Below are positions 7,222-64,000 of a stretch of 64,000 nt of DNA, in pieces (the stretch's first letter is position 1; each line of letters starts with the position of its first letter). Made by a program: the position numbers and the translations under genes. A model generated the notes under the pieces. That model was not told the DNA's origin and made no database searches. It saw only the letters and a program-made list of their open reading frames with translations. This stretch comes from an uncultured Clostridia bacterium (GTDB lineage Bacteria > Bacillota > Clostridia > Christensenellales > CAG-917). Where the stretch lies: NCBI GenBank assembly GCA_934277645.1, contig CAKQUX010000001.1, positions 386,110-450,109 on the forward strand, given 5' to 3'.

Positions 7222-7268
7222 TGCCACGCCCAAAAAATGCTCCGACTTGCAAATTAAATCGAAAAAGG

Positions 7269-8041: not shown

Positions 8042-8083
8042 AATTTAAAGTCTTGCCAAAATTCAGAATATTATAAAAAATGT

Positions 8084-8112: not shown

Positions 8113-8211
8113 TTTAAAGTCTATATAATATATAACATATTGCGCTATGAAGCTTAACTGTTTTACTGTTTTGCCGACGGCGACAGACAAATAACTTGAA
8201 AAGGTAAGGCA

Positions 8212-8289
8212 ATGAAGAAAAAGAACTTAATTATCAAATTAGCTTTATTCGTGCTTTTGCTCTCTCTTTCCTTTATGCTCGTTGCTTGC
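8212..8289 (+). other. Signal peptide with lipobox (LVAC, Cys26)
   Basis: It has a positively charged n-region (KKK), a hydrophobic core and L-V-A-C followed by G. Confidence 0.75.
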
Positions 8290-34143: not shown

Positions 34144-34159
34144 AATCGATTCCTAAAAA

Positions 34160-34360
34160 TTATTCAGCGATAACTTTGTTAAGCGCGTTAACGAGTTCTT
34201 CGATATCGATGCCGTGAACTGCCGCAGCTTCTTCAAGAGTTTCGTTGTGCGCGATAGCGCAACCCAAGCAATGCATACCGAATTGCATAAGAGTGTCGGC
34301 GATTTTTTCTGCGTCGCCAAGAGTCAAAAGGTCTGCAATCAACATATCTTTTCTTACCAT
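34160..34360 (-). CDS. DUF1858-type small protein (hybrid-cluster-protein-associated redox disulfide domain)
   Basis: This 66-aa protein has GMHCLGCAIAHNETLEEAAAVHGID. Confidence 0.7.
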   Translation of the reverse strand: MVRKDMLIADLLTLGDAEKIADTLMQFGMHCLGCAIAHNETLEEAAAVHGIDIEELVNALNKVIAE

Positions 34361-34446
34361 AACTATATCTCCTTTAATCTTTTAATTATTATTTGCAGAA
34401 AGCGAACAAATAACCGCTATAGTTTTTGCCGCCCTTTGCCGCACAT

Positions 34447-34475
34447 ATTATATGTCATAAAAATTTTACTGTCAA
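34447..34475 (-). promoter_or_regulatory. Consensus sigma-A promoter for the DUF1858 / XRE-cupin unit
   Basis: On the minus strand, TTGACA (34475..34470) is followed by an exactly 17-nt spacer and TATAAT (34452..34447). Confidence 0.6.
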
Positions 34476-34492
34476 TCGAGGCGCAAAGCTAA

Positions 34493-36693: not shown

Positions 36694-36789
36694 TTTGACC
36701 TCCGTTACTTTAAAAAGTAAATTATTTCTTTGAGTGCATTATAACATAATGCGGTTTAATTTTCAACAAATTTTGTAAATTTTTTATTC

Positions 36790-37806: not shown

Positions 37807-37895
37807 ATCTTGTTTACACTCTCCTTTTGTATAGACATATCTGCAACCATGCATTTGCGACAAAGTCGTATGCGCAAATAAATATCTTTGCAAAC

Positions 37896-37924
37896 ATTTT
37901 AATATTTGCAAAGTTTACTGTCAA
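37896..37924 (-). promoter_or_regulatory. Near-consensus sigma-A promoter of the AEC transporter gene, bracketed by TTTGCAAA palindromes
   Basis: On the minus strand, TTGACA (37924..37919) is followed by a 17-nt spacer and TAAAAT (37901..37896). The palindrome TTTGCAAA occurs at 37887..37894 and 37905..37912. Confidence 0.55.
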
Positions 37925-44200: not shown

Positions 44201-47200
44201 CGTGAACGTGTCTTTTCCGCTTGCGCTTGTAGCAACCGTGCCCGTAAAGCCGAATGCCGTCTTCAAATACTTAGCGTATTCGACGTAAGCGGCTCTTCCT
44301 GCCGTGCCGTATTCCGCATAGTCCGCATAGTGCGTGCTGAACGTATACGCGCTGCCGTTTTCAAACGTAATTTGAACGTTTTCAGGAAGCGTTACGTTGA
44401 ACGCTGCGTTGCTGACAGCCGTGCCTTTCGAGGTGTCGTTTGCCTTCATATCGATGACAAGGTCTTTTGTCAAAATCTTGCCACTCTTATACGTAAGTCC
44501 CGAAATCGACGATACCGAGTAGCTGTTTGTCGTGTAAACAGGTACGACGTATACGACTTTGTTCATAACGTAGCCGTAGACGTAGCCGATAAGTCTTTCC
44601 GTCTTGCTGTGCGATGTCGTAAGGTCAACGCTCGACGCGTCCCAAACGATTGCAACGCCGCCGTTTTCGTCATAGCCCGACTTGCCTGTGTATTCGTCCT
44701 TCGTGCCGTCGCTGAAATATGCGTTAGCAATTTGTGGGAAGAGTTTTTCGTCGGTGAAATACTCTGCCGTAAGGAATATCGATTTCTTGGCCGAGCCGTA
44801 AATTGCTTGTGCTTCTCTTGTAGACGGGTCAAGAAGGTTAATTCTTGACGGAACGCTTGCTTGTCCGCTAGGAATCGAAACCGTTTCGACTTCGCAGAGC
44901 GAAAGAAGGTTGTCGCTTGCCGTCGTAGGTTGAATTATAAGTTGCAAGTAGTTCGAGCCGTTGCTTGTCGTCGTCGATCTCGACGCGTCGATGTAAAGTT
45001 CAATTGCCTTGATGCCGCCGTCAACGCCCGTTCCCGTGTTAGTGAGCGAGTCAATGTAGATGAGAGCTTTTGCCGAGCTGTTTGCATAAGGAAGCGGAAG
45101 CAACGAATCGAGCAAGTAGCTGATTTCTTTAATCTCAGTATGTGCTGCCGCGCAAATGTTGCCGGCGACGCCGCCCATATCCGAAATAAGCCAAGGCATG
45201 AATGCGGCAGGCATTGCGTTTGCATAAGGCTCGACTATGTTTCTTCTCGCCGTCGAGCTTGAGGCGTTTTCGACTGCCGTAAGCAACGCCTTTGTGGTCG
45301 TGTACTTGTTTCCGCCGCTTCTATAATCATTCATACGACTGACAAAGTCGTCGTTGTTGATCATCGAAACTATCATATAGAAGAGATAGCTGAGAAGATC
45401 GTTGAACGTGTCTTTATCGAAGTTGATTTCAACCGTCGAATATCTGAGGCTGTTGCCCGACGCGCTGAACTTGCTTCCGTACGGTGACCAGCTTACTTTG
45501 TTCGTGCCGAAAAGTTGAACGTTAAGGCTCTTGATAACGTTGTTGATTTTCGGCATCCATTGATATTCTTTCTCTTCATCCTTGTCGTTTGTCGAATAAA
45601 TTTCGCCGAACTTTCCGTTTGAAGGATAGTTGAAGTAATCGTTGTTACCTTTAAGTATATCCGTTATGGTGAATATCTTGCCCGTAGACTTGTCGCCGAT
45701 GTAGCTTCCGAGGTTCAACGGGTCAAATATTCCGACGATTGCGCCTGCAAGTCCACCGAAGTTGCTTGCAATACCTGTGAGAGCTACGTTGCCGTTAAAG
45801 ATATAACCTTCAAGAGAATAATTGCTGCTTCTCATAGGGTGCTTTGCGCTGATTGCAAGTTTCAATCTGTCAAGCGTTGCGCTCTTGTCAATCGACTTGC
45901 TACCCTTTGTCATGGTGATCGAAACGGTGCTTCCGGCTTTATCGCTCTTGCCGCCTGCGCCCCAACCCGAGAACAGGTTGACGTTTGTAACGACTCGGCT
46001 ATCAGAAGTCTTTTTGCTGTAAACGATGCTGAGCGTCGGATCCATGCTGTCGATAAGTTGTTGAACGATGCCGCCGACCGAAAGCGTACCCATATCGAGC
46101 GCTCCATAACCCGTCTTCAATTCGTTTACAAGATTTTCGACGTCGATAAGTCCTGCCTTTTCGCCGAACTTAACGCTGATTCCGCTGATGTTTGCGCCGA
46201 TGTTTGTTCCCTTGTTGTCAAGAGCCATTTCAAAGGTCGCCGATTCAAGTCCGTTGTCAAAGTTGACCGAAATCGCGATATCGCCGAACGGAGGATTTCC
46301 TGCCGTTCCGAAATCGACGTTAAGCATATCGAAGATACGCTCAATGAACGACGAGTTGAAGTTGATACCGATGCTCGTTTCTTCCAAAAGAAGTTCACCG
46401 GAAACAACCCCCATATCGATTGCGCCCGTGGCTTGCGTTTTAGCTTCGTCGGTGGTTTCGGCATAGCCTGAGCTTTGCGCTTCGACTTTTCCGCTGTTTC
46501 CGCCAAGAAGTCCGACAAGACCCGAAAGTTTGACTTTGCCCAAACCGAATGCGGTAAGGTCGATATAGAATGCGTCGTTAAACAAACCTGTCTTGCTGTT
46601 GATAATGTCTCTGTTTGTATCCGCTCCGCTGCCCGCGCTACCGCTGAGTTTCGAAGAACCTAAGTAGTAAAGACTGAGGAATTGGCTGTTGAGCGGTTCG
46701 CCAAATCTTACGTCGATCTTCATATCGCTGTAAACGATGCCACCCATATTAAGTGTGCCTGCCGACGTAAACATTGCCGCAAGATTGATATCGAGCTCTG
46801 CGTCCATAATGAGCGAGAGAATGCTTGGCAAGTAGAAGTTGAAGCTGCCGAGCTTGTTCATATCGGAATCGAGCAATTTGCCGAGAGTGTTTCTTACAAA
46901 CTTGCCGAGCCAGTTTGCAAACGTGCCCTCTTCGTTGGAGGTGTTAGAAGTGATTGTCACTTCGCCCGACAATTTAAGGCTGAGCTTTTCGACCATAAGT
47001 TTCTTATTGCCTATGTCGAACACTACTGTGTATTGGTCAAGTTCCGACTTATTAGGCAGTTTGCCCGTGCCTTTTGCCAAATTTGCGTTTGCGACGGTTC
47101 CGTCATCATTGAATTGATATGCGACTTTTGCACCCGTATCGACTTTAAGGTCGTCGATATCTATCGACGCATAGAAGCTATCGTTCATTTTTGCAAGGAT

Positions 47201-50200
47201 AGTCGTCGTAAGCGAAGTGTCGCCTTCGTTTGCCGAGTTGTGAACGGTTGCAAGTTTGAGCATAAATTCTGCCGCTGCGGAGCTACTGAATATTTCCTTC
47301 TCTTCCTTGCCGTCCGCTCTACGATAGAAGTTTACGATTTCGTTGATTGCCGCCGTGTTGATTGCAACGCCCAAGTATTCAGGCTTGAACATAATGAGCG
47401 CGTATGCAAGTTGGTGCATCGTAAGTCCTGCCGCTTCGCTAAGCGATGAGGTCGATGCTTCCGAACTATTGAGCAATCCGCCAAGCAATCCGTTAAGCAT
47501 TGTCGCTACGTCAAAGTTAGAGATCGCAATTCTTCCGTCATTGCCGAGCAAGAAGTAAGCGTCAAGATAAATCGTGTGTCCTTGATACTCGCCGTTTGCA
47601 TTAAACGAAGGAGCGACGTAAAGCGACAAGAAGCGTTCGCTTACGCCTGTATCCTTATTCTTCTTGTTAAGAGTAAGAACGGCTTCCATCGTTTCAGGAT
47701 GTTTAAGGTCTAAGTAGACGTACATTCCGATCGTAAATTCCATATCCATATCGTTTTTGATACGAACGGTTACGTTGGTGTTTGCAAGCGAACTATCATC
47801 GCCGAAGACAAGTCCTGCAAGACCGCTAAGGTCAACGATGTTTGAAAGTCCCTTGTCGTCGAGAGCCGCAGCGTGGAAGGAAATTCCGCCTTCGAACGTG
47901 AGGTTAAGCTCCATATCTTTAAGGGCGTTGAAGTTCGTCGTCGCCATAAAGACGTAGTTGCTACCTTCAGGGTGCGTTTCGTTTGCGCCCAAGGTTTCGC
48001 CGTCGGTGTAGATTCTCGTTGCAACGTACGTAACGTCGTTTTCAACGTACGATACACTGGATTTCTCTATGTCATATTCGAGCTTAATGTTGTTAAGTCC
48101 GACCGCAAGGCTGAAATCTGACGGTTTGACGTATGCGCCTGTGCTGTCAAGTACTGCGATATAGAGCGTCTTAGCGGTGAAGTTTTCTGTGCCTGCAGTT
48201 GCGACAAACTTATCAATACCGCTATTAAATTGAGCTTCGGTCGTTTCCGAGTTCGGATATGCCGCCTTGAAATCGGCATACGTAGCATATTGGACGTAAA
48301 GTTTGCTAAGCGAGAAGTAATTGCCCGTATATGCGCTCTTATCCAAATCGGACGTTACGAGTCTGAACGTACCCGTTGCGGTTTGTTTGTTTCCTGCATT
48401 GTCATAGTAGTAAACAGTGCCGCCGTCGGTTGTATCGAGATAGTAGTTGCCGTGCTTGTCGTCTACGGTGAAGACGTAAAGCGTGCCGATCGTGTCTGAG
48501 GTTGCTTTTCCGAACAAGTTGTTCGTATAGCCGTAAACGCCTGCGTTTTCAAGGTCGCTTGCGTCGAACGCCGCAAAGCTGTAACGGTCGCCCTTCCACG
48601 TCGTATCCGATTCGCCGAGCCACATTTCTTTCGGCATATATTCTCTTCCGCCGGCAACGGCAAGCGAAAGGTCGATACCTACGCTGAATCCGTCGTTAAG
48701 GCTAAGCGTAATACCGCCGTCATCGATTTGCGGCAACTTAACCATATCTCTGAGAGTTTGGTTTTGAGTAAGGAAGCCAAGGAGCGAGTCGAACATAGTG
48801 CTCATAAAGTTGACTCTGACTTCGCCTTGCAATACTTGAATTTCCTTAAACATAACTTTAAGGACGTTGAGTATATCGCTTCCGAAGATACCTGCGCTGC
48901 CTTCTTCGCCGTCAACGAAAGTGCTTGCCGACGAAATAGCTTCGTCTGCGATAACTGCTTCTTTGTCGTTGTTGACGATACCGCTTATGTCAAGTCCTTC
49001 AAACTTAATCTTGTTGAACGCTTCGCCAAGTCCCATACGGCTTCCGAGGTCTTCAAAGTCGACGTAAAGCGAAATCTTTCCTTCTTCGTCGAAGAGAACG
49101 GTTACGTTTACGTTGATGTCTTGCGCCGCTCCGCCGTTTGTAGGGTCTTTATCGTAAGGCAACAAGTTGGAGTTGACCGTCATAATAAGGTTGATTTGCG
49201 CTCCGCCGAGTTTTTCGACAAACGTAAGTTTGTCATTCATAAACTTAGCAAGGTCAACGTAAGCCGAAAGAGTTGCCGTGAAGTAGGTGTTGTTGTCTTG
49301 ACCGATTTCCTCGATTTTTTCCGAAAGTGACTTGATGTAAGCCATAACTTCCGCATCGAGAAGCGCGCCGAACTCTTCGCTGAAGTTGATGATACCTGCA
49401 AGAACTTCAAGACTTACGTCAAGTTTTGCGCTGAGTTCCGCCTTACCCCAGTTGATGTCGAATGCGTCCGCAAATTGCATTTCGCCGCTGAAAATCTTAG
49501 CAAGGTCAACGCTTGCGATAAGTCTGAACTTGTTTCTGCATTCCTCATTCGTCATAAGGTCTTTTGCGTTGTCGCTGTTGTCGTCAAAGATGTTGACGCG
49601 AAGTTTACCGTCTTCGGTGAGATATTCCTTGCGGTACAAGTCACCCGTAAGTGATGTAATCGACTTAGCGTTTCCGTAATATCCCGCCTTGTTGCCGAAC
49701 ATCATGTGGCTATGCTTCGTGTCGATGCCGAACACCGAGAAGTTTACGTCAAGAATTTCGGTTTCGCCCGTCGTGTCGTAAATCTTGACTCCGAGGAAGG
49801 TCGAGCCTTCGCCCTTTGCGACCGACATTCCGACGTAAGGAACCATATTCGGAAGGTTTTCAAGCATATCCGCAATGGTTTCTTCGCCCGTAATTTCGGT
49901 GACAATCATTCCGATAAGTTTCGACGAAATCGAAGCGGTAATCATATCGAGAACAAAGTCGATATAGAAGCCTGCCTTGTCACGGTCTGCGCCTCGAATC
50001 GTTCCGTCTGCTTGTCCTGCTTCGTTGCCTTTAAGAAGGTTTGCAACGATAACTTCGACTGCGTCTGCTCCGAGATCTATCTTGAAGAAGCCGCCGTCTG
50101 CAAGGAAGAACGAAAGGTCAACGTATACGACGCCGTCGAGATAGTAAAGTCCGATAAATTGTTTGTCACGGCTGCCGTCGTCCTTTGTCGTCCAGATGTC

Positions 50201-56200: not shown

Positions 56201-59200
56201 TCCGATATCGGTCAAGTTGACGCACTTGACGTTTTCGACGTTCGCCGCAGTACGTTGCGAGATAGGGATTACAGTCGAACCCGTTTCGTCGCTGTACCAG
56301 ATATAGTTGTTAAGGTTGTAAACAACGTTGTTGTAGCTGAAATAGAATACGTCGGTGTTGTTTACGTCCGTTTCCGCATTCTTAGATGCGATAGACGCAT
56401 TTGCAAAGTAGCCGTAGCCGTATCTATCGACGCTCCAATCCGATTCGATTCCGTCACTTCCGACGTAAATCGCTCTGAATGCTTGGTTGCTTACAACGTC
56501 GAACTTGTCTGCTTTTGCATACAAGCCCGTGTCGTTTTGATGCCAACCGTAGTTGTACGTTTGGACGCTCGAAAGGTCAACGGCCGTTCCGTCGATGTCA
56601 ATCGAAACTACGCCGTTTGCTCCCATAACGTAATTTGTCAAGTCATAATACGTATCGCCTATCTTGACGTATCTACCGATGGTATTGGTCAAGTTGAGCG
56701 CAACGTATTCCGAACCTATTGCAACGTATTTGCCCGTATCAGCGTTAGACACCGTGCCGCTTTCGTCATTATAACGGCTGTGAGTCGAAACGTTGTAATA
56801 CAATCCGTCGCTACCCTTGACGATGAAATACAAGTTTGCAGGAATAATTGCAGACGCAACGTAATCGACTTCTTTTTCAAGTCCTGTGCCGTATGCGTAA
56901 TAGCCCATCGTATAACGCAAGTTTTTGTTCTCGTCTTTTAAGAGATCTTCGCTCCAATCGAGTTTTTCGTAATAGAGACCGCCCGAAACTTTAAATTCGC
57001 CGTTTTCGTTTTCATAGTAGACGTTGGTATCGATTGCGTGACGCTTGTAATACTTAAATTCGCTTGCAAGGTAAATGAGCGTAGCGTCACCGTTTACGAT
57101 ATAGTAATCGCCGTTCGTATCTTCCACGCCTTCGACATTGCAAATTGCAATCGACGAAATCATAACGTATTTATTGTTAGCTTTGTCATAAGCGTAATTG
57201 TTTGTAGCGTTCGTAAGAACGTCAATCATATCGCTTATTTCTTCATAACTACGACTAAAGCGTTGATCTTTGCAAATCTCCGAATAATCGATAAGTTCGT
57301 GGCTGAACTTGCCCTTGTCAAGGCTAAGCGACAAGTTGAGCACGTCGAATATATCTCCGATATCGCCGAGCGTCGGCATAATCATCGAAAGGATAACCGC
57401 AAAGAAGCTCTTTGTCAAAACAAGTTGAATTGCAGGGTCCGAGATGATAAGTTCCAAAACAGCTTGGTTTGCCGCATCCGACGAAACGTCGCTCGTCAAT
57501 GCTTCAGTTCTGTCTTTGATGCCGCCCGAAATTTCATCCGCTTTGTCAACGACGTCGCTTATGGCGTCGTCTGCTTTATCGATGCCCTTAATGACGTTTT
57601 CGATAACGCTTACGATATGCGGAATGTAAGCTGCAGGAGCGCCTGCAAAAAGTTTTCTTCCGTCAAGATACAACGTATCCTGAGCAAGATACAAACCGCC
57701 TTTAACGATAGCGTTTCCTTCCGAATCGTATTTATAATTTCCGTAAGTGTCGAGTTCCAAAAGTTCAAGCGAAATTTCAAGAGAACGAAGTTCGCTCTTG
57801 TTGAGGAAGTCGAGAATGCTGTATTGTTTCTTATACGTTCCGTTTTCTTTATCTTCTTCGTAGGTCGTTTCGATAACCTTACCGTTTTCATCGACTTTTT
57901 CGACCTTCGAATACTTCGTGCCTTTATACTTTCTGCCCTCGTTTTCTGCTCTTGCTTCCCAATCGCTGATAAGTTCATAGCCGTTTGCCGTGAAGTAATC
58001 AAGGAACAAATCGCCAAGGTTGAAGTTTGCGCCGATTCTTACGCCGACCGCGCTATAGAATTGTTGGTCAGCCATAAGCGAAACGACCATGTCTCCGAAG
58101 TACTGAGCAAGCATATCCGAAGAATTGAGGAATTGCGACAAGTCGTAGCTTGCACTGCCGTCTGCGCTTACGTAAAGTTTGCCGTCAACCGAAAGGTTGT
58201 AGGTTTGCGACGTGAATTTCGTAAGGTCTGCAAAGTCGTTAGGCGTTACTCCGACTCCGAGAATAGAAGTCGTTGCGCCGATATCGATTGTAAATGCGGC
58301 GGCAAGAGCAAGTTTAAGTTTCAAGCCGTCGGCAGTTTGCATTCCGACCGAAATAGACGGTTTGCCGTCGAAATCGTCGTCTGCGAGTTTAAGGAAAAGT
58401 CCGCTCGTGCTTTCGTCAAGATTGAATCTGCTAAGGTTTACCGAATTGTCACTGAACAATGCGATGACCGCTTGAAGCATATCGCTGTTGAACATAATGT
58501 CGAACGAATCGAAAGTTTTGAGCGTTGCGCCGCTTCTGAGTTTTGCCTTTACGACTACCGTCTTTACGATAGCATTCAAAACCGCGGCAACAAGTTTTGT
58601 GCCTTTAAGTTGTTCTTTTTCTTCGTCGGTCGTGCCGGCTTCTTCTTTATTGCCACCGCCGATCATATCGAAGATAAAGTCTGCGCTGATCTTTGCTCTC
58701 GGTCCGTCAATTCCTTTAAGGTCTAAAAGCAAATAGTTGTCTACAAGATAAATACCTACGGTCTTTCCTGCGATAGCTTGACGGTTGTGATCCATAGCGC
58801 AAAGTTCGATACCGAATTCGCACGCTTTAAGAAGTTGATCGATGGAGAAGTTTCCAAGGAAATCTTTAAGCTCCATACCGCCGTCGATAACGCTGTAAAT
58901 TCCGAGTTTTTGAAGGTCGATGTTACCTTTAAGAGTAAGGATAAGCGTCGTGTCAACCATATCGTCAACGTAGAACTTGAACGCAATAGTTTTAAGCAAA
59001 TCTTTAAGCGAAACTTTGTTTGCGCCCGAACCGAACGAGAAACCTTTTATAAGGTTGTTTATGAAATCGAGGTTCAAAGTTGCGTCGAGAATTTCTTGGA
59101 ACTCTCTCGGCACTCTTTGATACGTTCCGTTTTCGTCTTGAATGAAGTGTACTCCGTCCGATGCCAACGAGTATCTGTCCGACTTAGGAACACTGCCCGA

Positions 59201-62200
59201 TGCGATTTGAGTTTGCGTCATCTTGACAAAAGTTGCGTCAAGCGAGTAGTTGAAATAGAAATCGAACGCAAACGTGATACACGGATTGTCGTCGAAGTTG
59301 TTGAGTGTCGAATTGCCGTTTTTGTCGACACCTGAAGTAAGACGCGTGATAGCGTCACTGAGTTTTTCGCCTACGCTTTGCAATCTTTCATAGGTATCGA
59401 GCAACGAGATAGGCAATTTTTCTCCGCCTATTTCGACGTAGTAATTTGCCCAAGGATTGGTTTCGCCTGCTTTTACAGGGTCACCTGTGAGCGGATTAAA
59501 CGTGTCGCCGACCTTTTCAAAAACGTTTTCGCGAGTAAGTTTATAGTAAACGTCCGTGTTCGATTGTCTGACGTAGTAGCCGATAAAGTTATCTACTTCG
59601 TTGAAGTCTATTTCGGCATAACGGTCTTTTGCCGCACCCGTTGCAAGGTATGGTCTTACAATCGAAAGGCTTACCGACAAAATCTTGGAATCGAGTCCGA
59701 CAAGAATTTGCGGGATTGCGGTGTCGATCGTAAATTCGGCAGACAAGCCGAGATCAACAGGATTGCCGTTTTCATCAACCATCTTGCTGAGAATGGTGTC
59801 GATGTCGACTTGTTCGTCTTCCGGCTTTCCGTTGTTAAGAACGAAGTTGATAATTGCTATTATAAGGTTTTGTGCAAGCGTGATAGAAATTTCTTTGCTT
59901 GCAAGAGCGATGACGGTTTCGAGAGCTTCTTTAGCTTTGTCGCCGCCCTCTTCTCCTTCATCCGAAATTTCGGCTTCACCGTCTTGCGTGACCGAAGTCG
60001 TCAATTTCTTGACGAGCCCGTTTATCGTATCGCTGACGATTGTGCCGACGTCGATATTGTTCATAACGAAGTTGTCTTCGCTAAGCGCGCCGAGTTCGAC
60101 GTAAAGGTCGGTGCCTAAAATGTAAACGCCGAACAAAACTTTGCCCGTGGTCTTATCGCGAAGGACGAGATAAAGTTGAGTGTCGTTTTTACTTTCGGTG
60201 TTGATGCTGGCTTCGATTTCGAGAGCCATATCGAGATAAATGTCTTCTTTAATGTCAAGACCGAAGTCAAGAGCAAGGTCGGCAACCAACGCTTTCAAAT
60301 AGCTGTCGATTTTGATAATGCCGTCCTCTTCTTCCTGAGAGTTTTTAAGTTGTCCTTGAATGTCGATAGCAAAACTAAGGCTGAACTGCGACAAGTTTTG
60401 AAGAGCTATGTAGTCGGTTCTGTTTATGTCTTTACCTATCGATTGTCTGTTGAAAGATATTGTAGGTTTGACGATTGACAAGGTTACCTGCAACGGATCG
60501 ACGCCCACAGACAGTTCAAGGTCTTGCGCCGCCGTGTTAAGTTGAACATACGAACGGTCAGGCGTAAGCTCGATCATAGGTTTAAGCGTCTTCGTTCCGT
60601 CAGGATTTACTTGATAAAGCGACGGAATGAATTGTGCAAGCAATACGGCAACGAACTTCGACGAGAAGTTGACAAGAAGCGTATCTTCTTTAAGCGTAAT
60701 CGCGCTAAGTCCCGTGCCGAGAATGACTGCAAGAAGATTGAGCGAATCGTTAGATGCAGTAGTATCCTCACCTTCGCTTCCTACTGCTTCGTCGGCGAGT
60801 TCATAGCACTTGACGTAAAGGACTTTCGACAAACCTGCATAAGTTGCGGTAATTGTGACCGAACCTGCCTTTTTAGCCGTGACGACAACGCCGCCTGCCG
60901 CCGTAACGGTTGCAGTTGCAATGCTTTCGTCTGACGATACTACTTCGACCTTGCCTGTAGGATTGCTGAACGGTACCCACGGTGTTCTCGAAGAGTCGCC
61001 TACTTTGATTTCACGAGAAACGGCGTCTACAACGGTAACTTTGATTTTCTTGGTTACGGTAGCTCCCTTTTCATCGGTATAGGAAACCGTAAGAGCAACT
61101 TCGCCCTTAGCTTTTCCGTTTACTTTGATTCTGTTTCCGCCAACGATTTCGGTAGTGGCAACGGTTTCGTTTGCGCTTTCGACTTTAAGTCCGGCAATGC
61201 TGCCGTCTTCCGCTTTCTTTGCGTCTTCGAATACGTCGTCGGAAATGAAAGTTTCAGCCTCGCCGAGAGCAACGCCCATATCGAAATCGTACTTGGTTTC
61301 AAACATACCCAAAATCTTGCCGATATCGAAACCGTCAAGCATAATGTGAGTATTTTGCCAAATTCCCAAATCTATATCGAGGAAGAGCGTGCTGTAAGGT
61401 TGTCCGAAGTTGTTGTTTCCTTGATATACAAGATACAAGCCCAAAGCCTTCTTGCTCGTAGAAAGTCCGACCTTTCCGTCCCAGATTTCGATTGCGAGAT
61501 CCGAGTGGGTAAGAATATATTCGATATTCATAAGGTTTTTAAGGTCAAACGTCTTTTCCTTAATATTGATTCCCGAAAGGTCGAGTCTCAAAAGAGCCGA
61601 AATCTTAAATCCGAGTTCGTCGCTGATCTGCGCAGGAATTTCAAACGCAAGCATAAGTTGATAAAGCAAACTTTCAAGAGCAGGAGAATCCGTCTTGTAA
61701 AGGCTTTCAATCCAGCTGCCTACGTCCCACTTGCCCGCATCGCTGTGCGAATCGCTTTGATATGCGTATGCGCCGAGCGAACCGCTAAGCTCTAAATAAA
61801 GTCCTTCGAGATTGATTGTTCCGTCGTCGTTAAACAAAGCGACGTTGACGTAACCTTCGCCGATTGCCTTGTCGAGACCTTCGATGTCGATTTGCGAGAA
61901 TTCGACTTTCGGAGCGTTAAGGTTAAGCGAAACGGCGATCATATCTTCATCTTTTTCGTTCTTAATTGCAAGCGAGCCTTTAAGACCGCTGTCGTAGTGC
62001 GTAACCACGCCGTCCACTACCTCGTCGGTATCTTTGTAACGAAGTTCAAGCGATGCCGAGATGCCGGCAAATCCGAGACCGAGTTTATTGAGAACAAGTT
62101 CTGTCAAACCGTCTGCGACTTCGACAAGGATTCTCGAATCGGACATTGCGACCGAAAGAAGAATTGCAAGGTCATAGTTTTTGATATTTCCGTCTTTGTC

Positions 62201-64000
62201 GGTATATTTGGTATCGAAATCGATTGTAGCCGTAGTACCCGCTTCAGGGTTTGCAGGCTTAATCGATTGAAGCCAGTTGTTGCCGAGAATGACTTGCATC
62301 AAAAGTTCAAAGAGATTTACTTCAAGTGCAATCTTTTCAAGTCCCAAGTATTCGACGTCGACGTACATCATTCCGCCGATATAGTAAAGTCCGAGAACGG
62401 TCTTATAGCTTGCTCCGCCGTCAAGCGTGCGTTGCAAGTTGAGCTTGAATTGCGTCTTGTTGTTTGCAAACATCGAACCTGTTTTGACCATCTTTCTGTA
62501 CGTTTCTTCGTCTCTCAAGAATTGGATGAGCGGCGTAAGGTCAGCCGAAAGTTGAAGGTCGTATTTGTATGTAATGTCGATATTTTCTTCAACGACAAGC
62601 GATTTGATTTGGCTGTCGATGACAATTCCCAAAGTGTTGAGAAGTCCGGCAATGCCTTGGTCAAGGTCGACTTGACCTGCCTTGATGTTAAGGTCAAGTT
62701 CGCCGTTCATTCCGACGTAGAAATACGGCGATTCCATAAAGTTTGCGTATCCGCTTTCGCAATACATGCCGTTTGCGTCAACGACGTATCCGATAAGTTT
62801 TCCGTCTTCCGTCGTCTTTCTCGAATATCTCGTTCCGGAGTATGCCGCGCTTTCTTCGTCGCTGAGTCTGCGATACTCAGGAGCTTCCATTCTGTCGATA
62901 GATGCCTTAACCGTAAGGTCGCTTACGGTAAAGTTCATATCCATACGGTTACCTGACGAAAGGTAAAGGTTGACTTTCATTTCGTTGAAGTTGAGTCCGT
63001 CGCCTAAGCTAAGTCTCAAACCGCCGACCATAGAGTCCGTATTGCCGATAATAAGTTTGTCGCCAAGACCTAAAACTTTGAGCAATTCGGAAACAAGGCT
63101 ACCTGCAAGATAAATTTCAAAGTAGTCCGCGCCAAGGTCTGCGCCCGAAATTACAGCCGCGATAATCGCAGGAATGTTGACTGCGGATGTTTCCGCCTCG
63201 GCGGTAGTTTCACCTTCGTTCGATTTATCTTTGATAAAATCGGTAAGGTCGATTTTGACTTTTGCGATGTTATAGAATGATAAATCTAAATATATTACTT
63301 TATTTATATAATAAAGGTCGATGTACGTTTCTCCGCTGACAGCGTTGCTGATGCTGAGATGCACTTCGCTCTTCAAGAAATCTTTAAGATTGATATTTCC
63401 TTCGATGCTGAACACGAATTTATCTTGCGTCGTGTTGTCGAGCTTCATAAGAAGTTGAAGAAGCATCGTCGTTTTTGCGTCGATATCTTTGTACGTAATG
63501 TCGGTGAAATCACCGCTTGCCGTGTAAAGGTCGAATTCGCCTTTAAGCGAAACGTAAATTTCTTCCAGCTTAAACTTGCCGTCGTCGTCTTTCGCAAGGT
63601 CGAGATAGCTCGATTTTTTAGCTTCGACGTTACTCAAAACTTCCGACATTTCTTTGTTGCCTCTCATTGTCGTAAGGCTACCGTAGAAAACGTTTGCACT
63701 GATTCTTGCACTGAAACCGTCAAACGGTTCGGAAAGGCCTACACGCAAAACGAAGTTCGCACCGGTAAGTTCGTCTCTTTCAAGCGAGATAGAAGCGTTG
63801 TCAATAGGAAGTTCCGCCTTAGGGTTGAACATCTTTACGATTTTGTTCAACGTGCTGCTTGTAAGAGCAAGGTTGAAACGTTTAAGGTTGAGCAATCCTT
63901 GTTCGCCCATAACGATTTCGATATTCGAAATGACTTCCGCAATAATCGACGTAAGGTTCGACGTGTCGATAGCCGCCGATGACGCTTCGCTCGTAAGAGT
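38288..64000 (-). CDS. Giant (>8,570 aa) modular, apparently non-enzymatic protein; 5' end outside the window
   Basis: The frame is stop-free over 25,713 nt. The first in-window Met is at 63910, but the 30 upstream in-frame codons (TLTSEASSAAIDTSNLTSIIAEVISNIEIV) are also open. It has its own terminator. Composition and repeat logic are coherent along the whole length. Confidence 0.9.
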   Translation of the reverse strand, partial: TLTSEASSAAIDTSNLTSIIAEVISNIEIVMGEQGLLNLKRFNLALTSSTLNKIVKMFNPKAELPIDNASISLERDELTGANFVLRVGLSEPFDGFSARISANVFYGSLTTMRGNKEMSEVLSNVEAKKSSYLDLAKDDDGKFKLEEIYVSLKGEFDLYTASGDFTDITYKDIDAKTTMLLQLLMKLDNTTQDKFVFSIEGNINLKDFLKSEVHLSISNAVSGETYIDLYYINKVIYLDLSFYNIAKVKIDLTDFIKDKSNEGETTAEAETSAVNIPAIIAAVISGADLGADYFEIYLAGSLVSELLKVLGLGDKLIIGNTDSMVGGLRLSLGDGLNFNEMKVNLYLSSGNRMDMNFTVSDLTVKASIDRMEAPEYRRLSDEESAAYSGTRYSRKTTEDGKLIGYVVDANGMYCESGYANFMESPYFYVGMNGELDLNIKAGQVDLDQGIAGLLNTLGIVIDSQIKSLVVEENIDITYKYDLQLSADLTPLIQFLRDEETYRKMVKTGSMFANNKTQFKLNLQRTLDGGASYKTVLGLYYIGGMMYVDVEYLGLEKIALEVNLFELLMQVILGNNWLQSIKPANPEAGTTATIDFDTKYTDKDGNIKNYDLAILLSVAMSDSRILVEVADGLTELVLNKLGLGFAGISASLELRYKDTDEVVDGVVTHYDSGLKGSLAIKNEKDEDMIAVSLNLNAPKVEFSQIDIEGLDKAIGEGYVNVALFNDDGTINLEGLYLELSGSLGAYAYQSDSHSDAGKWDVGSWIESLYKTDSPALESLLYQLMLAFEIPAQISDELGFKISALLRLDLSGINIKEKTFDLKNLMNIEYILTHSDLAIEIWDGKVGLSTSKKALGLYLVYQGNNNFGQPYSTLFLDIDLGIWQNTHIMLDGFDIGKILGMFETKYDFDMGVALGEAETFISDDVFEDAKKAEDGSIAGLKVESANETVATTEIVGGNRIKVNGKAKGEVALTVSYTDEKGATVTKKIKVTVVDAVSREIKVGDSSRTPWVPFSNPTGKVEVVSSDESIATATVTAAGGVVVTAKKAGSVTITATYAGLSKVLYVKCYELADEAVGSEGEDTTASNDSLNLLAVILGTGLSAITLKEDTLLVNFSSKFVAVLLAQFIPSLYQVNPDGTKTLKPMIELTPDRSYVQLNTAAQDLELSVGVDPLQVTLSIVKPTISFNRQSIGKDINRTDYIALQNLSQFSLSFAIDIQGQLKNSQEEEDGIIKIDSYLKALVADLALDFGLDIKEDIYLDMALEIEASINTESKNDTQLYLVLRDKTTGKVLFGVYILGTDLYVELGALSEDNFVMNNIDVGTIVSDTINGLVKKLTTSVTQDGEAEISDEGEEGGDKAKEALETVIALASKEISITLAQNLIIAIINFVLNNGKPEDEQVDIDTILSKMVDENGNPVDLGLSAEFTIDTAIPQILVGLDSKILSVSLSIVRPYLATGAAKDRYAEIDFNEVDNFIGYYVRQSNTDVYYKLTRENVFEKVGDTFNPLTGDPVKAGETNPWANYYVEIGGEKLPISLLDTYERLQSVGEKLSDAITRLTSGVDKNGNSTLNNFDDNPCITFAFDFYFNYSLDATFVKMTQTQIASGSVPKSDRYSLASDGVHFIQDENGTYQRVPREFQEILDATLNLDFINNLIKGFSFGSGANKVSLKDLLKTIAFKFYVDDMVDTTLILTLKGNIDLQKLGIYSVIDGGMELKDFLGNFSIDQLLKACEFGIELCAMDHNRQAIAGKTVGIYLVDNYLLLDLKGIDGPRAKISADFIFDMIGGGNKEEAGTTDEEKEQLKGTKLVAAVLNAIVKTVVVKAKLRSGATLKTFDSFDIMFNSDMLQAVIALFSDNSVNLSRFNLDESTSGLFLKLADDDFDGKPSISVGMQTADGLKLKLALAAAFTIDIGATTSILGVGVTPNDFADLTKFTSQTYNLSVDGKLYVSADGSASYDLSQFLNSSDMLAQYFGDMVVSLMADQQFYSAVGVRIGANFNLGDLFLDYFTANGYELISDWEARAENEGRKYKGTKYSKVEKVDENGKVIETTYEEDKENGTYKKQYSILDFLNKSELRSLEISLELLELDTYGNYKYDSEGNAIVKGGLYLAQDTLYLDGRKLFAGAPAAYIPHIVSVIENVIKGIDKADDAISDVVDKADEISGGIKDRTEALTSDVSSDAANQAVLELIISDPAIQLVLTKSFFAVILSMIMPTLGDIGDIFDVLNLSLSLDKGKFSHELIDYSEICKDQRFSRSYEEISDMIDVLTNATNNYAYDKANNKYVMISSIAICNVEGVEDTNGDYYIVNGDATLIYLASEFKYYKRHAIDTNVYYENENGEFKVSGGLYYEKLDWSEDLLKDENKNLRYTMGYYAYGTGLEKEVDYVASAIIPANLYFIVKGSDGLYYNVSTHSRYNDESGTVSNADTGKYVAIGSEYVALNLTNTIGRYVKIGDTYYDLTNYVMGANGVVSIDIDGTAVDLSSVQTYNYGWHQNDTGLYAKADKFDVVSNQAFRAIYVGSDGIESDWSVDRYGYGYFANASIASKNAETDVNNTDVFYFSYNNVVYNLNNYIWYSDETGSTVIPISQRTAANVENVKCVNLTDIGQKVKVSDFDTVAKLQANEEVYKISGADSDYKYFFFKGYYKAEKGEYKWVAAEYSLVLPYEERYTEITYFREYESGDYIFDNSNVEYYVELASSNASGVRNTITKSAYDALNETEQANYGAIGSFVLYDNLTAEKKEQFASSTRYQKVSDYYLFSYLVAHADELYVQDINGYYGKTTNTDGTVRYETYDSSKHNHRYSKAVNNVIVKTEAEANVGKQNYEEKIVGTYVKYKGNEDKLAAYENIAVEIGGEKYVIYSVLTDELKAALSSMRYVAILDVFTYDADETYTYPAYVAYDEFKDYKLTADKYLSELIGSADRSAFMENYWWVNTTEGYVLWSSLTAQQKASYSARVKYVLDYSVKGSKYDLRNDDGKNYGSYTFDITQSEYMRKSTKYTSISDFGITLGVKAGTFGFGVSIGGLNIGFGSTASLLPKDINEAIPFTKSTVGASVDVRLHGEFTAGTVDLGRVFSGIVGDISGVVVEVPEYTAGVTKMDFRMSVSALLDFSDLSKSELKAELIDISAVDVEEVFIGVYYQDGSLYIDAEKLGLPKMVINELDFITDTLNDLLVKIFGDDVYNSEQIQNEAGGADVDYNVALQILLSNKHFSVRIGKQLIDFALGLIKFGDVSLKDFIYEGIDYSGFADVKVSLDDLEATEIGAEISFRMPAGSKYVQVKIENLFDGENNLTDEAKTAIEAAQEANGLKKDGVAEKLMLFIEDPDGIWAFDSANNIFVRGTAITTGSRFTPYAYGTTEFNAALQAAEKDGAKTIYYILVEGESANYDTYAKEVNFSLGINNVSLKFAQTDRTRPLTDDAIKDYTLYSEIENVVIEERIDVTTYLAGGDLDLSEWVQLFFQDESLADLEGIIKVMDETGDYLNRKTYLDMKIDIKLASIINSIRKTILDKEIAGTTEDSEKKPTWREGDLDLQLLFDTLKGGGIDIVKILSLVNAEFKIVTQGSSYDASTGQTVTTEENTLVRMYFAGGNYALVCDYVTIDGYNEYVKVDEYDEANKDKYEWNAEGTELVRYRYDDIEKQYISGTGAEYGLIKYFPYKDNVDSYSGIRYSKNYKGYYTDANGKYMAVVDHEKLGNTASKDKWSHYFVNPYGDYAYDILNKEFFNVKELERQYAAEGKKLDLSDTDRYSADRYSYDPVNYYQNEYGVYSFVPGGLNIDLTGLGLAAYTVDSFTLTEIGNKLFNKDKNSEASTTDDTTGGDNTGDDNTDDNTGSKISLPLLPDNICEYIRSFLYGMQVTSNYISIMLHANYLNVIADLVTGEDTSFSFDFDFNKRSYLRINTDAKRYRFDSLVTNDANTDLDASGNTDVNGGIRLSTNPTEILTDEFGAQITYEQFVTDESRLVYAVLPRTGDTGNYVFIDKNTQLVKFTAAEKAHITAGTNNQIPTGGQELLDYFDNVFYSGGKLNEYLATIGQSYLTLKSTVADAEYVSNVAGEDYLTYDIYRVHIVKVGSSYVITCNGQTKTYDSIDDFKTEIGARRLFTVTVDDDALAPLVELLLYVFDNYIGVDIQSPKLSFTKYSYTSNGADTFPTSMTYDIIDNFGTMALNAGELSSLSVNGKSFGEDVDSEQGVSHATIQMTIADGSASGYKVAIRNANRYSISGSFGDATSLIANRFDGKICAYDKYQAVYTANANVATQDDDGEWLLIEYTRSDKTKQEFFIRLYSAADLSAGKLTETVGFNYYGTGALQITDSTLTSKVSYYRWLRFDFVRHYDENGYVIRNKYVRENSLTSMITADKFYGYDAGEYVYNDILNDYFNSPLYVKTADGTFAYYNKAVYGELSEGLKVGDELEVRISSVNLSGKKLGTGEGEINENLTTKVGKVIVTKSGADLVKTFILDTAIAWYTMDESGEFSAFSGTATENTSLYAKAGDEYFCLAYYDVKTNAIVAFDRYDELRYMNVTEISSVSMVLGGTFSLSGDYSSTELSKVLYSVFGELTTALTISEPGKKLNNTFGYSIALNLDVDIDPMSLFNGGKITDMIKLHNLDLAIDIWTTKDDGSRDKQFIGLYYLDGVVYVDLSFFLADGGFFKIDLGADAVEVIVANLLKGNEAGQADGTIRGADRDKAGFYIDFVLDMITASISSKLIGMIVTEITGEETIADMLENLPNMVPYVGMSVAKGEGSTFLGVKIYDTTGETEILDVNFSVFGIDTKHSHMMFGNKAGYYGNAKSITSLTGDLYRKEYLTEDGKLRVNIFDDNSDNAKDLMTNEECRNKFRLIASVDLAKIFSGEMQFADAFDINWGKAELSAKLDVSLEVLAGIINFSEEFGALLDAEVMAYIKSLSEKIEEIGQDNNTYFTATLSAYVDLAKFMNDKLTFVEKLGGAQINLIMTVNSNLLPYDKDPTNGGAAQDINVNVTVLFDEEGKISLYVDFEDLGSRMGLGEAFNKIKFEGLDISGIVNNDKEAVIADEAISSASTFVDGEEGSAGIFGSDILNVLKVMFKEIQVLQGEVRVNFMSTMFDSLLGFLTQNQTLRDMVKLPQIDDGGITLSLNDGFSVGIDLSLAVAGGREYMPKEMWLGESDTTWKGDRYSFAAFDASDLENAGVYGYTNNLFGKATSDTIGTLYVFTVDDKHGNYYLDTTDGGTVYYYDNAGNKQTATGTFRLVTSDLDKSAYTGNYFSLSKLYVQYATYADFKAAYPNSETTEAQFNSGIDKFVATAGTENFTAKTLYIAVLDSTGAYVKPSDFSLAVGLNNIKLEYDIEKSSVSYVENDVTYVATRIYTDGETLGANETHPEGSNYVFMATTNFNALKDMELNLTFEGGISFHAAALDDKGLSNIVDLSGLAGLVFGDDSSLANTNVTVRIKNDMDMEFTIGMYVYLDLKHPETMEAVLTLNKKNKDTGVSERFLSLYVAPSFNANGEYQGHTIYLDAYFLLGNDGRIAISNFDVATMLNGLLGGLLNSSEASTSSLSEAAGLTMHQLAYALIMFKPEYLGVAINTAAINEIVNFYRRADGKEEKEIFSSSAAAEFMLKLATVHNSANEGDTSLTTTILAKMNDSFYASIDIDDLKVDTGAKVAYQFNDDGTVANANLAKGTGKLPNKSELDQYTVVFDIGNKKLMVEKLSLKLSGEVTITSNTSNEEGTFANWLGKFVRNTLGKLLDSDMNKLGSFNFYLPSILSLIMDAELDINLAAMFTSAGTLNMGGIVYSDMKIDVRFGEPLNSQFLSLYYLGSSKLSGSAGSGADTNRDIINSKTGLFNDAFYIDLTAFGLGKVKLSGLVGLLGGNSGKVEAQSSGYAETTDEAKTQATGAIDMGVVSGELLLEETSIGINFNSSFIERIFDMLNVDFGTAGNPPFGDIAISVNFDNGLESATFEMALDNKGTNIGANISGISVKFGEKAGLIDVENLVNELKTGYGALDMGTLSVGGIVQQLIDSMDPTLSIVYSKKTSDSRVVTNVNLFSGWGAGGKSDKAGSTVSITMTKGSKSIDKSATLDRLKLAISAKHPMRSSNYSLEGYIFNGNVALTGIASNFGGLAGAIVGIFDPLNLGSYIGDKSTGKIFTITDILKGNNDYFNYPSNGKFGEIYSTNDKDEEKEYQWMPKINNVIKSLNVQLFGTNKVSWSPYGSKFSASGNSLRYSTVEINFDKDTFNDLLSYLFYMIVSMINNDDFVSRMNDYRSGGNKYTTTKALLTAVENASSSTARRNIVEPYANAMPAAFMPWLISDMGGVAGNICAAAHTEIKEISYLLDSLLPLPYANSSAKALIYIDSLTNTGTGVDGGIKAIELYIDASRSTTTSNGSNYLQLIIQPTTASDNLLSLCEVETVSIPSGQASVPSRINLLDPSTREAQAIYGSAKKSIFLTAEYFTDEKLFPQIANAYFSDGTKDEYTGKSGYDENGGVAIVWDASSVDLTTSHSKTERLIGYVYGYVMNKVVYVVPVYTTNSYSVSSISGLTYKSGKILTKDLVIDMKANDTSKGTAVSNAAFNVTLPENVQITFENGSAYTFSTHYADYAEYGTAGRAAYVEYAKYLKTAFGFTGTVATSASGKDTFTGVTANYPVGKITWNEKNFVYDFAGGVVKVSYTFSWGLSGTYTESVEIPIKNYKVGNVTKFAYANSSGALDYSVDTLQGFDSAKLVSYDVKKGGFVNGTNKFLVTDGQGSSFVDVSKVTAENYTNYAFDLYAYIKSMNRLEGNYAPYEIDGVEQDVESYKLDLSWSLGGQDDCSGLKPLKDAIDALYDQTNKCWNYFKGIDVIVTGYVGGGNSKTFFASEYFSGYPTDTATTKYVAGTVNGVDGYWVYQALKFRIKVAPTAFEKFGKADVQIDPYKYATIDEAAIGNTLSATMDKGNSTKSITYTLGQDMKYNIPSVNAEELTYMGYTGSGKLKLGVTLGTKNYGFQNVSLPITVKKMAAKGTAIAVEDSLNPDWFTNDALKVIDVSFAGNVTHKMSLDWDNMQLYSDSACTKKVDNIFKGGTFYAKVRADKVELVDGKYQVVMGADGITPIASYKGTSQAIKITINATEYGLETLGNNAITFNSAFEAIGNTIDIYRYYTDKDYKSAFDAIFGEAADNGYWGNTDRKVTVKLNKEVLVGGVVTTEIPAYVRHFNIDNLVGKNKKGEFITNFKSDKVTIGVTVGNREFDLTLGVTPYEVSALRFADGSVKVTENAETGEYEYRYDVLSNFTVPTMAFAVCRGNQYEVADFKFNTETSPKAEEYLTAEDGTKYVERLVTLYSGTALEQTLTIKIILENVDKNGEDVDFDFDLAFETDLNGGEASGEALVSAEAQTAAAKTYQFMAFGKFELPNKGTIKVNGENGATYENVPVTWDRLSAPTADEIIAYIRANGGADYDSSKGYPFTRKATMAGIEKSINFVYYYDFEIVKLGGQDFGGTYTLKAADFFKGLPTTASVVVKTASGNKTIDNVTVEWLKANAKDKVAYDENGIENRGEINAWIRLSFNGFTTENSFGEDFISYGYAKEDGELVFTDIPSSLTIESVDKAQILEEAFKKYIDEAYVYDVLGIYDITPDEVTQGFVKKLFDNNFVVDEKNVTIGEGEGAITMDVLATLSYQLPSDVLTAPNKYFGTSQEIVVKIQSEQCVIEKTIKVYFLDRSVKKVANVTDRSLIFDPYRGISEDAFKENLDVLIANEEVKSYVNGEGKVAFDVQKIADRKVNFNANWTNKANILKTVKTSREGFEWPDNMVTLTAESGAVLEVRIPVYLINRTIAEIRLITDGKYDQLKYYEYRTSKQYIFMDDAVLDQMMTVTYDNKTNQISKLEFRNPYTYSTDVFPTTVKVTFSDGQIMTYNIVWSNVPEKADGLTTTKATIKASIVIGSVENNIYNGEFKYDENSVIIVDEFDLDLAIKSFNLTRFNSDVASKSLDTNYNYEFYPYATTSGTAITMNGSQKTVYNPFVDSRDVDGKYTYYANGITAYLDGQWIKTNYVANYIGYKTLTTSGETKITTATVPSDAILYRIDPITRRYESSGSGNFDYIYVYNVAFNLDVTEWDLSDVSYSAVGGTTYAKVKFGNDKIAASYRTPVKIVQSTFVNFDWSTAKFAKTDATANNVFKSSVGIGSGAKFDPWKDEKYTTTNADKYFPNAVTAKFTDGTNEWTQEVSIAWNFNNLEIDMTGGEGHTKVVIGSSNEYDVSKYKFELKELNVTQIVDYIDRTITFNMDNNSSIKSQTGFAGAQSYDSFTKYTGTISNIDPYNYTRPTMPTSLYTISNGVAQTFTESSSTYKLVWDYSAFYPSYVGGETQITAQLTVPSGLKQEIKIKYYVYKMMISKLASTNYTTNVNTTTGKAATAFTVTPFSVNSYTLPTSYTVTFAQQKYDGTSFGTAASTSKSYNYVQTSMPSSFKYEFVSTAKTGYLASIKVGSQQRVTVDVKLAAWTTTMTTSTSLSGTSNSKTYVLTQYSGKPVAYVGYAQVYNKAGNQVVATYNVSISAADEKYYLPKFSGNRKVVYYLQPIFGVMVDKSGRVLTTRVLTSDYKVNGRVVLKAGAEIPNGYGNGSNNGLSTSYITVTSNN
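38291..44923 (-). other. C-terminal array of ~2,200 aa of Ig-like (Big_4-like) units of the giant protein
   Basis: The recurrent pattern is (L/F)P..V.V.F(S/T)DG....(V/I).(V/I).W, for example FPTTVKVTFSDGQIMTYNIVWSNV, FPNAVTAKFTDGTNEWTQEVSIAWNF, ANAYFSDGTKDEY..VAIVWDASS and VPVTWDRLS. Confidence 0.55.
55061..57223 (-). other. Tyr-rich hairpin-like insert region of the giant protein (residues ~2230-2950)
   Basis: It contains many short units such as NGDYYIVNGDATLIY, VYYENENGEFKVSGGLYYEKL, GDTYYDLTNYVMGANGVVSI and KYFFFKGYYKAEKGEYKWV. Confidence 0.6.
60800..61189 (-). other. Two tandem Big_2-type bacterial Ig-like domains inside the giant protein (residues ~908-1037)
   Basis: The two domains read LKVESANETVATTEIVGGNRIKVNGKAKGEVALTVSYTDEKGATVTKKIKVTVV and KVEVVSSDESIATATVTAAGGVVVTAKKAGSVTITATYAGLSKVLYVKC. 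Confidence 0.7.

Follow-up and report, generated by a model that had tools for sequence, protein, structure and literature searches.

What kind of protein is encoded by the giant minus-strand gene that runs from base 38288 to the right-hand end of this stretch of DNA is the question raised by the locus. The window, that is, the whole stretch of 64,000 nucleotides (nt) analysed here, comes from contig CAKQUX010000001.1 (positions 386,110 to 450,109) of an uncultured Clostridia bacterium, and a preliminary description of it had proposed that the gene product is built from at least 11 diverged copies of an unassigned module. The repeat observation is confirmed. On the sequence evidence, the giant protein carries a lipobox signal peptide and hence would be exported, and it has 14 ancient, positionally orthologous modules and a far end with immunoglobulin (Ig)-like domains. 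Its function can be inferred, and we give about even chances to a lipid-anchored stalk of fixed length which projects an Ig-like array from the cell surface.

To begin with, all 11 signature strings listed in the preliminary description were found in the translation of a single open reading frame (ORF) of 8,540 codons (38288..63910, minus strand), which encloses the flagged interval. The span given for them in the window (46505-63331) was exact, while their residue numbers lay 3-6 above the actual first residues (Table 1). The copies are far diverged, since self-BLASTP of the giant protein gave zero off-diagonal matches; self-BLASTP of its C-terminal third gave no internal match, and the pairwise identity between copies was 17-28%. 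In a leave-one-out test, a hidden Markov model (HMM) of the 90-aa core was used, with 51 controls made by local shuffling or reversal of the protein. Eight copies scored 7.7-34.8 bits against a control best of 2.9-6.1 bits, the copy at residue 1717 was marginal (5.0 bits), and those at residues 2069 (2.6 bits) and 4945 (-3.2 bits) failed on window-internal evidence alone. These two failures and the lack of self-matches would fit an artefact, in which similar amphipathic strings arise by chance in a long beta-rich ORF. However, an independent HMM, built from 461 modules of distant relatives with this protein and its relatives above ~33% identity excluded, gave 44-114 bits for all 11 listed copies, against a maximum of 7.9 bits in the shuffled or reversed controls. 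Moreover, 518 modules were detected in ~95 proteins, and the modules are one-to-one orthologous between relatives. A chance or compositional origin is refuted by the independent HMM scores and this orthology, and is next to impossible.

The count of at least 11 was right as far as it went and incomplete, as the window holds 12 modules plus the tail of a further one, and the whole protein 14. The weak copy suspected near residue 3546 is a genuine module, module 10, split by an insertion of ~160 aa. Its first piece (HMM columns 2-80, aa 3385-3461) scored 7.6 bits while the best control reached 7.9; for its second piece (columns 105-264, aa 3720-3909) the score was 43.6 bits. The split module corresponds to module 10 of two relatives, P0007 and P0008.

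The reading frame is open upstream of Met 63910, with no stop up to base 64000, so that this Met is internal and not a start codon, and the numbering from it is incomplete. Residue numbers counted from it, which are kept here, are ~578 too low with respect to the full protein: 8,570 codons of the giant gene lie in the window and ~548 more outside it, giving a full protein of 9,118 aa. The missing part was read from two near-identical relatives, the database protein P0001 (96% identical) and the genome locus L002 (95% identical), which have 578 aa added upstream of Met 63910, comprising a lipoprotein signal peptide and two further modules. In L002, the gene start is preceded by a Shine-Dalgarno sequence, and the encoded signal peptide is MKRKLVLILTVILLAVIVGTILTAC/GEQ; the lipobox LTAC/G is present in both relatives, with the same N-terminus. 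By this comparison, the complete protein is predicted to have ~9,118 aa and 14 modules, the window holding the tail of module 2 and modules 3-14. Furthermore, using a signal peptide ending in [LVI][ASTVI][GAS]C as the lipobox pattern, a strict lipobox was found in 30 of the 36 signal-like N-termini among the relatives, and five more ended in F-A-C. The giant protein has a net charge of -417 and 0.2% Cys, and no transmembrane (TM) segment was found in it apart from the N-terminus, its most hydrophobic 19-mers being all post-linker module elements. The C-terminus (...STSYITVTSNN) is without LPXTG, no hydrophobic segment was found in the C-terminal region, and a downstream scan gave no clear minus-strand terminator beyond the stop codon at 38288.

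An exhaustive search of 1.84 billion representative proteins with a profile of 11 full modules returned 93 proteins at E<=1e-3, of which 22 were found at E<=1e-30, and iteration on these relatives yielded the 518 modules. The ~93 relatives are representative clusters at 50% identity. A word-indexed search with aa 1-1400 recovered two close relatives only, and word-indexed searches with a 9-copy core alignment or a two-module alignment gave nothing new. Many relatives have lengths of 6,500-7,900 aa and are matched in 12-15 stretches, and most come from uncultured Clostridia/Christensenellales assemblies, under names such as 'Clostridia bacterium', 'Christensenellales bacterium' or 'Bacillota bacterium' (L002 being 'MAG: Bacillota bacterium'), one being labelled Acidaminococcus. 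Exactly 14 module matches were found in 15 out of 17 full-length relatives, in which the array starts ~50-90 aa from the N-terminus, or ~350-360 aa in three of them. In particular, each of modules 3-14 was matched best by the module of the same number in P0007 and P0008 (~25% identical overall), with best scores of 110-319 and second-best scores of 61-118, and module 14 paired with module 14 of each of the five relatives tested. BLAST with P0003 was colinear over 7,434 aa, and colinearity with relatives reaches aa ~8494, while in a distant subfamily (P0018, P0019 and P0035) nothing but the 14-fold count and module 14 can be traced. The one-to-one orthology and the fixed count indicate that the 14-fold array is old and has been neither homogenised nor resized since, and a count held at 14 through divergence to ~22-25% identity indicates that length or architecture is under selection. 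Together with the extreme divergence between copies, the fixed count points to one integrated structure, as recently amplified adhesin repeats would look different. A shorter complete member was also observed (P0032; L010 8001-20903), with 4,300 aa and 11 module matches, having genes for an extracytoplasmic function (ECF) sigma factor and an RsgI-type anti-sigma factor upstream and for a 2,384-aa MBG_2/MBG_3 protein downstream.

The module is ~290 aa long and beta-rich, and its family profile repeats the order of elements that had been described, namely an alternating strand after an S-E-L turn, a Tyr hairpin, a G-L-x-K strand and, after an acidic linker, a hydrophobic element. A pair of long strands (profile columns 11-23 and 58-70), strictly amphipathic with L/I/V on one face and S/D/E/N on the other, comes before the S-E-L turn and strand (columns 86-92) and the Tyr hairpin, where Y108, Y115 and D117 are conserved in 76%, 84% and 73%, respectively. 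After the hairpin come a G-L-P-K-I-K-I strand (K125, K127) and a short helix. The acidic low-complexity loop holds a conserved E154-A155-x-T-A-A-D/E motif (Ala 71% across the 518 modules), which could be a modification, cleavage or docking site; examples are found at aa 2135-2143 (RTEALTSDV) and aa 5470-5476 (NSSEAST). The hydrophobic strand/helix element (columns 173-205) reaches a Kyte-Doolittle value of 1.93, and the C-terminal part of the module has three to four more amphipathic strands and a Tyr-x6-D-x-D-G hairpin connector, a Tyr-rich element expanded in places into inserts of up to 750 aa.

Covariation was analysed by mean-field direct coupling analysis (DCA) of the family modules, with an effective number of sequences (Meff) of ~258, which recovers only local hairpins and a few medium-range contacts. 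Antiparallel ladders were found between profile columns 86-91 and 106-111, 105-110 and 113-118, and 113-118 and 124-129, with the strongest coupling between D117 and K125 (z 9.6), in support of the antiparallel strand meander of the preliminary description. From the hairpin registers, Y108, Y115, D117, K125 and K127 would lie on the polar face. At the level of elements, significant couplings connect the meander strands with the post-linker hydrophobic element, which points to a closed core. When its N-terminal half was aligned with its C-terminal half by hhalign, the module showed no internal duplication, though the setup was weak, its columns being set by the first sequence.

These data bear on the suggested analogy with a beta-solenoid fibre, in which each module would be a stack of parallel beta-coils. 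Although the regular hydrophobic/polar alternation and the Gly/Asn/Asp-rich turns would suit such a fibre, the strongest ladders of covariation belong to antiparallel, short-turned hairpins, the structural model described below has hairpin meanders of 12-14-residue strands and helices, no 15-30-aa sub-periodicity was seen, and neither Pfam nor Foldseek gave a pectate-lyase or other solenoid match. A parallel solenoid is disfavoured by the antiparallel signature region and the modelled hairpin strands, and must be considered very improbable. The antiparallel meander, which argues against a solenoid, neither shows nor excludes a repeating-beta-groove or a LolA-like half-barrel.

Structure prediction with AlphaFold2 gave an unusable model of one module with 11 paralogues (predicted local distance difference test, pLDDT, 43.9), and a low-confidence model of modules 3-4 with a 21-sequence alignment (pLDDT 55.9, predicted template modelling score, pTM, 0.50), which by DSSP consists largely of hairpins with 12-14-residue strands, together with a few helices and disordered linkers. 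The top Foldseek matches of this two-module model were weak and non-significant (E >= 2e-3, TM-score <= 0.31), being curved antiparallel sheets: LolA3 9tp6, RseB 2v42/3m4w, 4eg9, nitrobindin, porins and the ApoB beta-sheet. The LolA/RseB-like ones had E 0.015-0.04, probability <= 0.69 (0.66-0.69 for 2v42 and 4eg9) and TM-score <= 0.23 on this pLDDT-56 model, and no TamB, VPS13 or ATG2 appeared among the matches. Sequence searches agree with the earlier label of an unassigned module. Pfam hmmscan of the whole protein gave nothing for the module at E<=0.1, and among 21 two-module segments no AsmA, TamB/DUF490, DUF748, DUF3971, Chorein_N, VPS13, ATG2 or other repeating-beta-groove profile matched at E<=5. 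Likewise, no Pfam match of the module to LolA or MucB_RseB profiles or to a carbohydrate-binding family was found, an NCBIfam search of the protein gave nothing for the module, Pfam scans of the relatives' N-terminal and internal fragments gave nothing, and PDB sequence searches with the protein halves and both profiles returned chance matches only (ferritin and RNA polymerase alpha). In the literature on giant proteins and genes, repeating-beta-groove proteins in Firmicutes and AsmA-like proteins in monoderms, no description of this family was found.

The modelled strands and the weak matches are relevant to a second analogy put forward earlier, that with repeating-beta-groove proteins (AsmA/TamB/VPS13). 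In a conduit or carrier chain of this kind, the modules would be open half-barrels or beta-tacos, of the repeating-beta-groove or LolA/RseB type, whose hydrophobic face binds lipid tails, and a row of 14 of them would serve to transport or retain lipids, lipoglycans or lipid-linked precursors of the wall between the membrane and the outer wall. The giant protein resembles TamB, YhdP, AsmA, VPS13, ATG2 and BLTP1 in its great length, amphipathic beta-strand blocks with loops and helices, N-terminal membrane anchor and conserved unit count. VPS13/TamB-type rods have a fixed unit number among orthologues, as the orthologous modules have here, and the strictly amphipathic 12-14-residue strands, the placement of the anchor at the membrane, the shared theme of curved antiparallel lipid-binding sheets among the non-significant Foldseek matches, and the very hydrophobic element of ~30 aa per module, which could serve as a plug as in LolA, would also fit. 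The LolA/LolB/RseB-like unclosed beta-barrels, which include the Gram-positive lipoprotein 4eg9, are the best Foldseek neighbours, though non-significant, and are alike in a domain of ~200-290 aa with ~11 antiparallel strands and short helices; we know of no member arrayed 14 times in one chain. However, the analogy found no positive support. Every Foldseek match is non-significant and comes from a low-confidence model, no AsmA, TamB, DUF490, Chorein or VPS13 profile matched even at the most permissive threshold, and a lipobox takes the place of the TM helix that anchors repeating-beta-groove proteins. Moreover, the hydrophobic element covaries with the meander as in a closed core, the distal end has Ig-like domains instead of a membrane-docking domain, and no internal 5-strand sub-repeat was detectable with the weak hhalign setup. 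The organism is apparently a monoderm of the Clostridia, the relatives being labelled Clostridia or Christensenellales and no sign of an outer membrane being found in the 64-kb window, and 14 modules of 290 aa would far exceed any periplasm-type gap. Such a lipid-handling chain is decidedly unlikely. Its most specific form, in which half-barrel or beta-taco units with removable hydrophobic plugs would be joined head to tail into a ~60-nm lipid-anchored conduit through the Gram-positive-type wall, for lipids or lipid-linked glycans, is quite improbable; if true, an organism with no outer membrane would have evolved a bridge-like lipid-transfer machine of its own, independently of AsmA/VPS13.

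The Ig-like domains are accessory and are not the module. A Big_4 match near the C-terminus scored 28.6 bits (Pfam cutoff 22.1), with its best stretch at ~aa 8103-8137, a Big_2 match in module 5 was sub-threshold (20.3 bits, cutoff 22.8), and the relatives' gene products gave Pfam matches to CarboxypepD_reg, SdrD_B (weak) and Big_4. Since the two Big_2-like domains lie exactly at the acidic linker of module 5, this linker loop is exposed and tolerates the insertion of whole domains. The gap between modules 8 and 9 was measured at 130-370 aa in relatives and ranges from 130 to 750 aa across the family, and the Tyr-rich insert which fills it here is built of RY.../G-x-Y hairpin-like motifs of the kind that make up the short connectors between all modules (profile Y282, D289, G290); it loosely resembles YD-type repeats, with no Pfam match.

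The genes adjoining the giant gene in related loci bear on another possible use of the modules. In L002 and four diverged loci (L004, L006, L007 and L008), the giant gene is immediately preceded, on its own strand, by a gene for a cytoplasmic PIG-L-family deacetylase, at a long intergenic distance of 300-1,170 nt; the five PIG-L proteins share only 34-53% mutual identity. The PIG-L gene is accompanied by GH20 and HGSNAT_cat genes in one subfamily and by Transglut_core (~1,000 aa) and ROK genes in the other. We take the PIG-L neighbour as a lead towards amino-sugar biology and not as evidence of function. In a further explanation, the modules would be independent globular domains, like beads on a string, each binding a ligand such as host or wall glycans, and the protein would be a multivalent capture platform tied to its N-acetylglucosamine (GlcNAc)-processing neighbours. 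The GH20, PIG-L, ROK and HGSNAT_cat genes in several diverged loci, the recurrence of the polar cluster (Y108, Y115, D117, K125, K127) in every module, the under-representation of covariation between modules and the presence in the same window of a second lipoprotein with repeated jelly-roll-like units would all favour it. However, no carbohydrate-binding family was matched, the modules abut in subfamily B, with overlapping HMM envelopes and no flexible spacers, and a fixed count with one-to-one orthology would be unusual for multivalent binders, whose copy number is usually variable. A capture platform of independent beads is therefore possible, albeit unlikely.

The reading we prefer is a lipid-anchored stalk of fixed length. 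Through a lipid on its N-terminal Cys, the protein would be attached to the outer leaflet of the cytoplasmic membrane, and the 14 non-interchangeable modules would form one semi-rigid stalk of fixed length, running through and beyond the cell wall and displaying the Ig-like array at its far end; it would serve as a surface fibril, an adhesin or a scaffold of the envelope. Given the PIG-L, ROK and GH20 genes that adjoin the giant gene, its expression or maturation may be linked to the metabolism of amino sugars. Several points weigh against this stalk. The gene's own N-terminus lies outside the window and was taken from the 95-96% identical relatives, and neither a binding domain of the adhesin type nor a cell-wall anchor nor a partner gene for secretion was found. 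In the junction DCA, inter-module couplings were under-represented (31 of the top 100, with ~50 expected), so that an inter-module interface was not established and rigid stacking of the modules is without support. Both models of the module fold are of low confidence (pLDDT 43.9 and 55.9), and the prediction of consecutive modules with a Foldseek search, as the preliminary description had suggested, gave no match for the two-module model at E<=1e-3 in PDB and BFVD. Finally, P0035 is without a PIG-L gene, the context of P0032 is different, and the kept gene neighbours may reflect inherited gene order and not function.

Table 1. Parts of the giant protein and adjoining genes. Residues (aa) are counted from the internal Met 63910; positions refer to the window, except for the PIG-L genes, which are given in their own loci.
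Feature	Residues (aa)	Position	Strand	Basis or remark
Giant lipoprotein gene		38288..64000	-	5' end cut by window edge
Module 2, C-terminal tail	4-116	63563..63901	-	Family HMM columns 181-269, 12.2 bits; columns 186-288 in another family-HMM search
Module 3 (signature aa 194)	112-376	62783..63577	-	Independent HMM 108 bits; leave-one-out 19.1 bits
Module 4 (signature aa 504)	387-703	61802..62752	-	Independent HMM 114 bits; leave-one-out 21.3 bits
Module 5 (signature aa 822)	699-912 + 1039-1170	60401..61816	-	Two complementary HMM pieces, 49.6 + 18.1 bits
Two Big_2-like Ig domains splitting module 5 at the linker	~913-1038	60797-61174	-	Big_2 aa 980-1023, 20.3 bits
Module 6 (signature aa 1258)	1161-1446	59573..60430	-	Independent HMM 92.5 bits
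Module 7 (signature aa 1717)	1603-1909	58184..59104	-	Independent HMM 65.5 bits; leave-one-out 5.0 bits, marginal
Module 8 (signature aa 2069)	1897-2252	57155..58222	-	Independent HMM 56.9 bits; leave-one-out fails, 2.6 bits
Tyr-rich insert, modules 8/9 (750 aa; 11.6% Tyr)	2253-3002	54905..57154	-	Composition
Module 9 (signature aa 3096)	3003-3280	54071..54904	-	Independent HMM 112 bits; leave-one-out 34.8 bits
Module 10	3385-3555 + 3718-3932	52115..53758	-	Two HMM pieces; ~160-aa insertion in Tyr-hairpin turn
Module 11 (signature aa 4584)	4477-4774	49589..50482	-	Independent HMM 101 bits; leave-one-out 27.1 bits
Module 12 (signature aa 4945)	4819-5122	48545..49456	-	Independent HMM 44.2 bits; leave-one-out fails, -3.2 bits
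Module 13 (signature aa 5426)	5323-5610	47081..47944	-	Independent HMM 67.9 bits; leave-one-out 16.3 bits
Module 14 (signature aa 5743)	5635-5940	46091..47008	-	Independent HMM 92.1 bits; ~30-aa insertion in hairpin turn
C-terminal non-module region (~2,600 aa; Thr/Val/Tyr-rich)	5941-8540	38291..46090	-	Beta-rich; Big_4-type Ig-like near end
Downstream genes: Mem_trans, SPFH/Band 7 with triple Zn-ribbon, Zn-ribbon protein, cupin		33586-37911	-	
PIG-L gene, L002		6003-6764	Same as giant gene	
PIG-L gene, L004		6891-7700	Same as giant gene	
PIG-L gene, L006		6783-7577	Same as giant gene	
PIG-L gene, L007		6879-7703	Same as giant gene	
PIG-L gene, L008		6307-7104	Same as giant gene	

The G+C content is ~45-48%, and outside the giant gene the window is like any bacterial chromosome, with genes which include Rnf, Mur ligase, YetF, GAPDH, class II aldolase, SPFH/Band 7 and sodium:solute symporter. 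No obvious secretion or partner gene was found beside the giant gene. The downstream order Mem_trans, SPFH/Band 7, Zn-ribbon and cupin is kept beside the giant gene in P0003, P0005 and P0012. A second large ORF with no Pfam match (8212-12714, plus strand, 1,500 aa) encodes the second lipoprotein mentioned above, with a lipobox signal peptide (...SFMLVAC/GE), a C-terminal TM helix and a basic tail; it has about five internal, jelly-roll-like repeats of ~230 aa, each ending in G[YW]A[FL]FD, and is not related to the 290-aa module.

Giant bacterial surface repeat proteins are known as a general kind; what is new here is the module, the type of anchor and the frozen 14-fold architecture. Those of Gram-positive bacteria, such as Ebh, SasG/Aap, the serine-rich repeat adhesins and Cpe0147-type Ig arrays, are alike in being thousands of residues long, acidic and Cys-poor, in having tandem modules followed or interrupted by Ig-like domains (Big_2, Big_4, CarboxypepD_reg), and in their presumed extension from the surface. 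In contrast, they have LPXTG or a C-terminal TM helix where the present protein has an N-terminal lipobox, none of them is matched by its modules, and their repeats are near-identical and variable in number, whereas those of the giant protein are ~20% identical, fixed at 14 and orthologous. The 518 aligned modules, with their conserved Tyr/Asp/Lys and E-A-x-T-A-A-D/E motifs, provide a ready Pfam-style domain definition, and the conserved PIG-L neighbour is a further lead. To our knowledge, little has been described of the cell surface of uncultured Clostridia/Christensenellales-type organisms, to which the family is confined as far as the search of 1.84 billion proteins shows. With ~9,100 aa, the protein is among the largest of bacteria, and a domain absent from public family or structure libraries takes up about two-thirds of its length.

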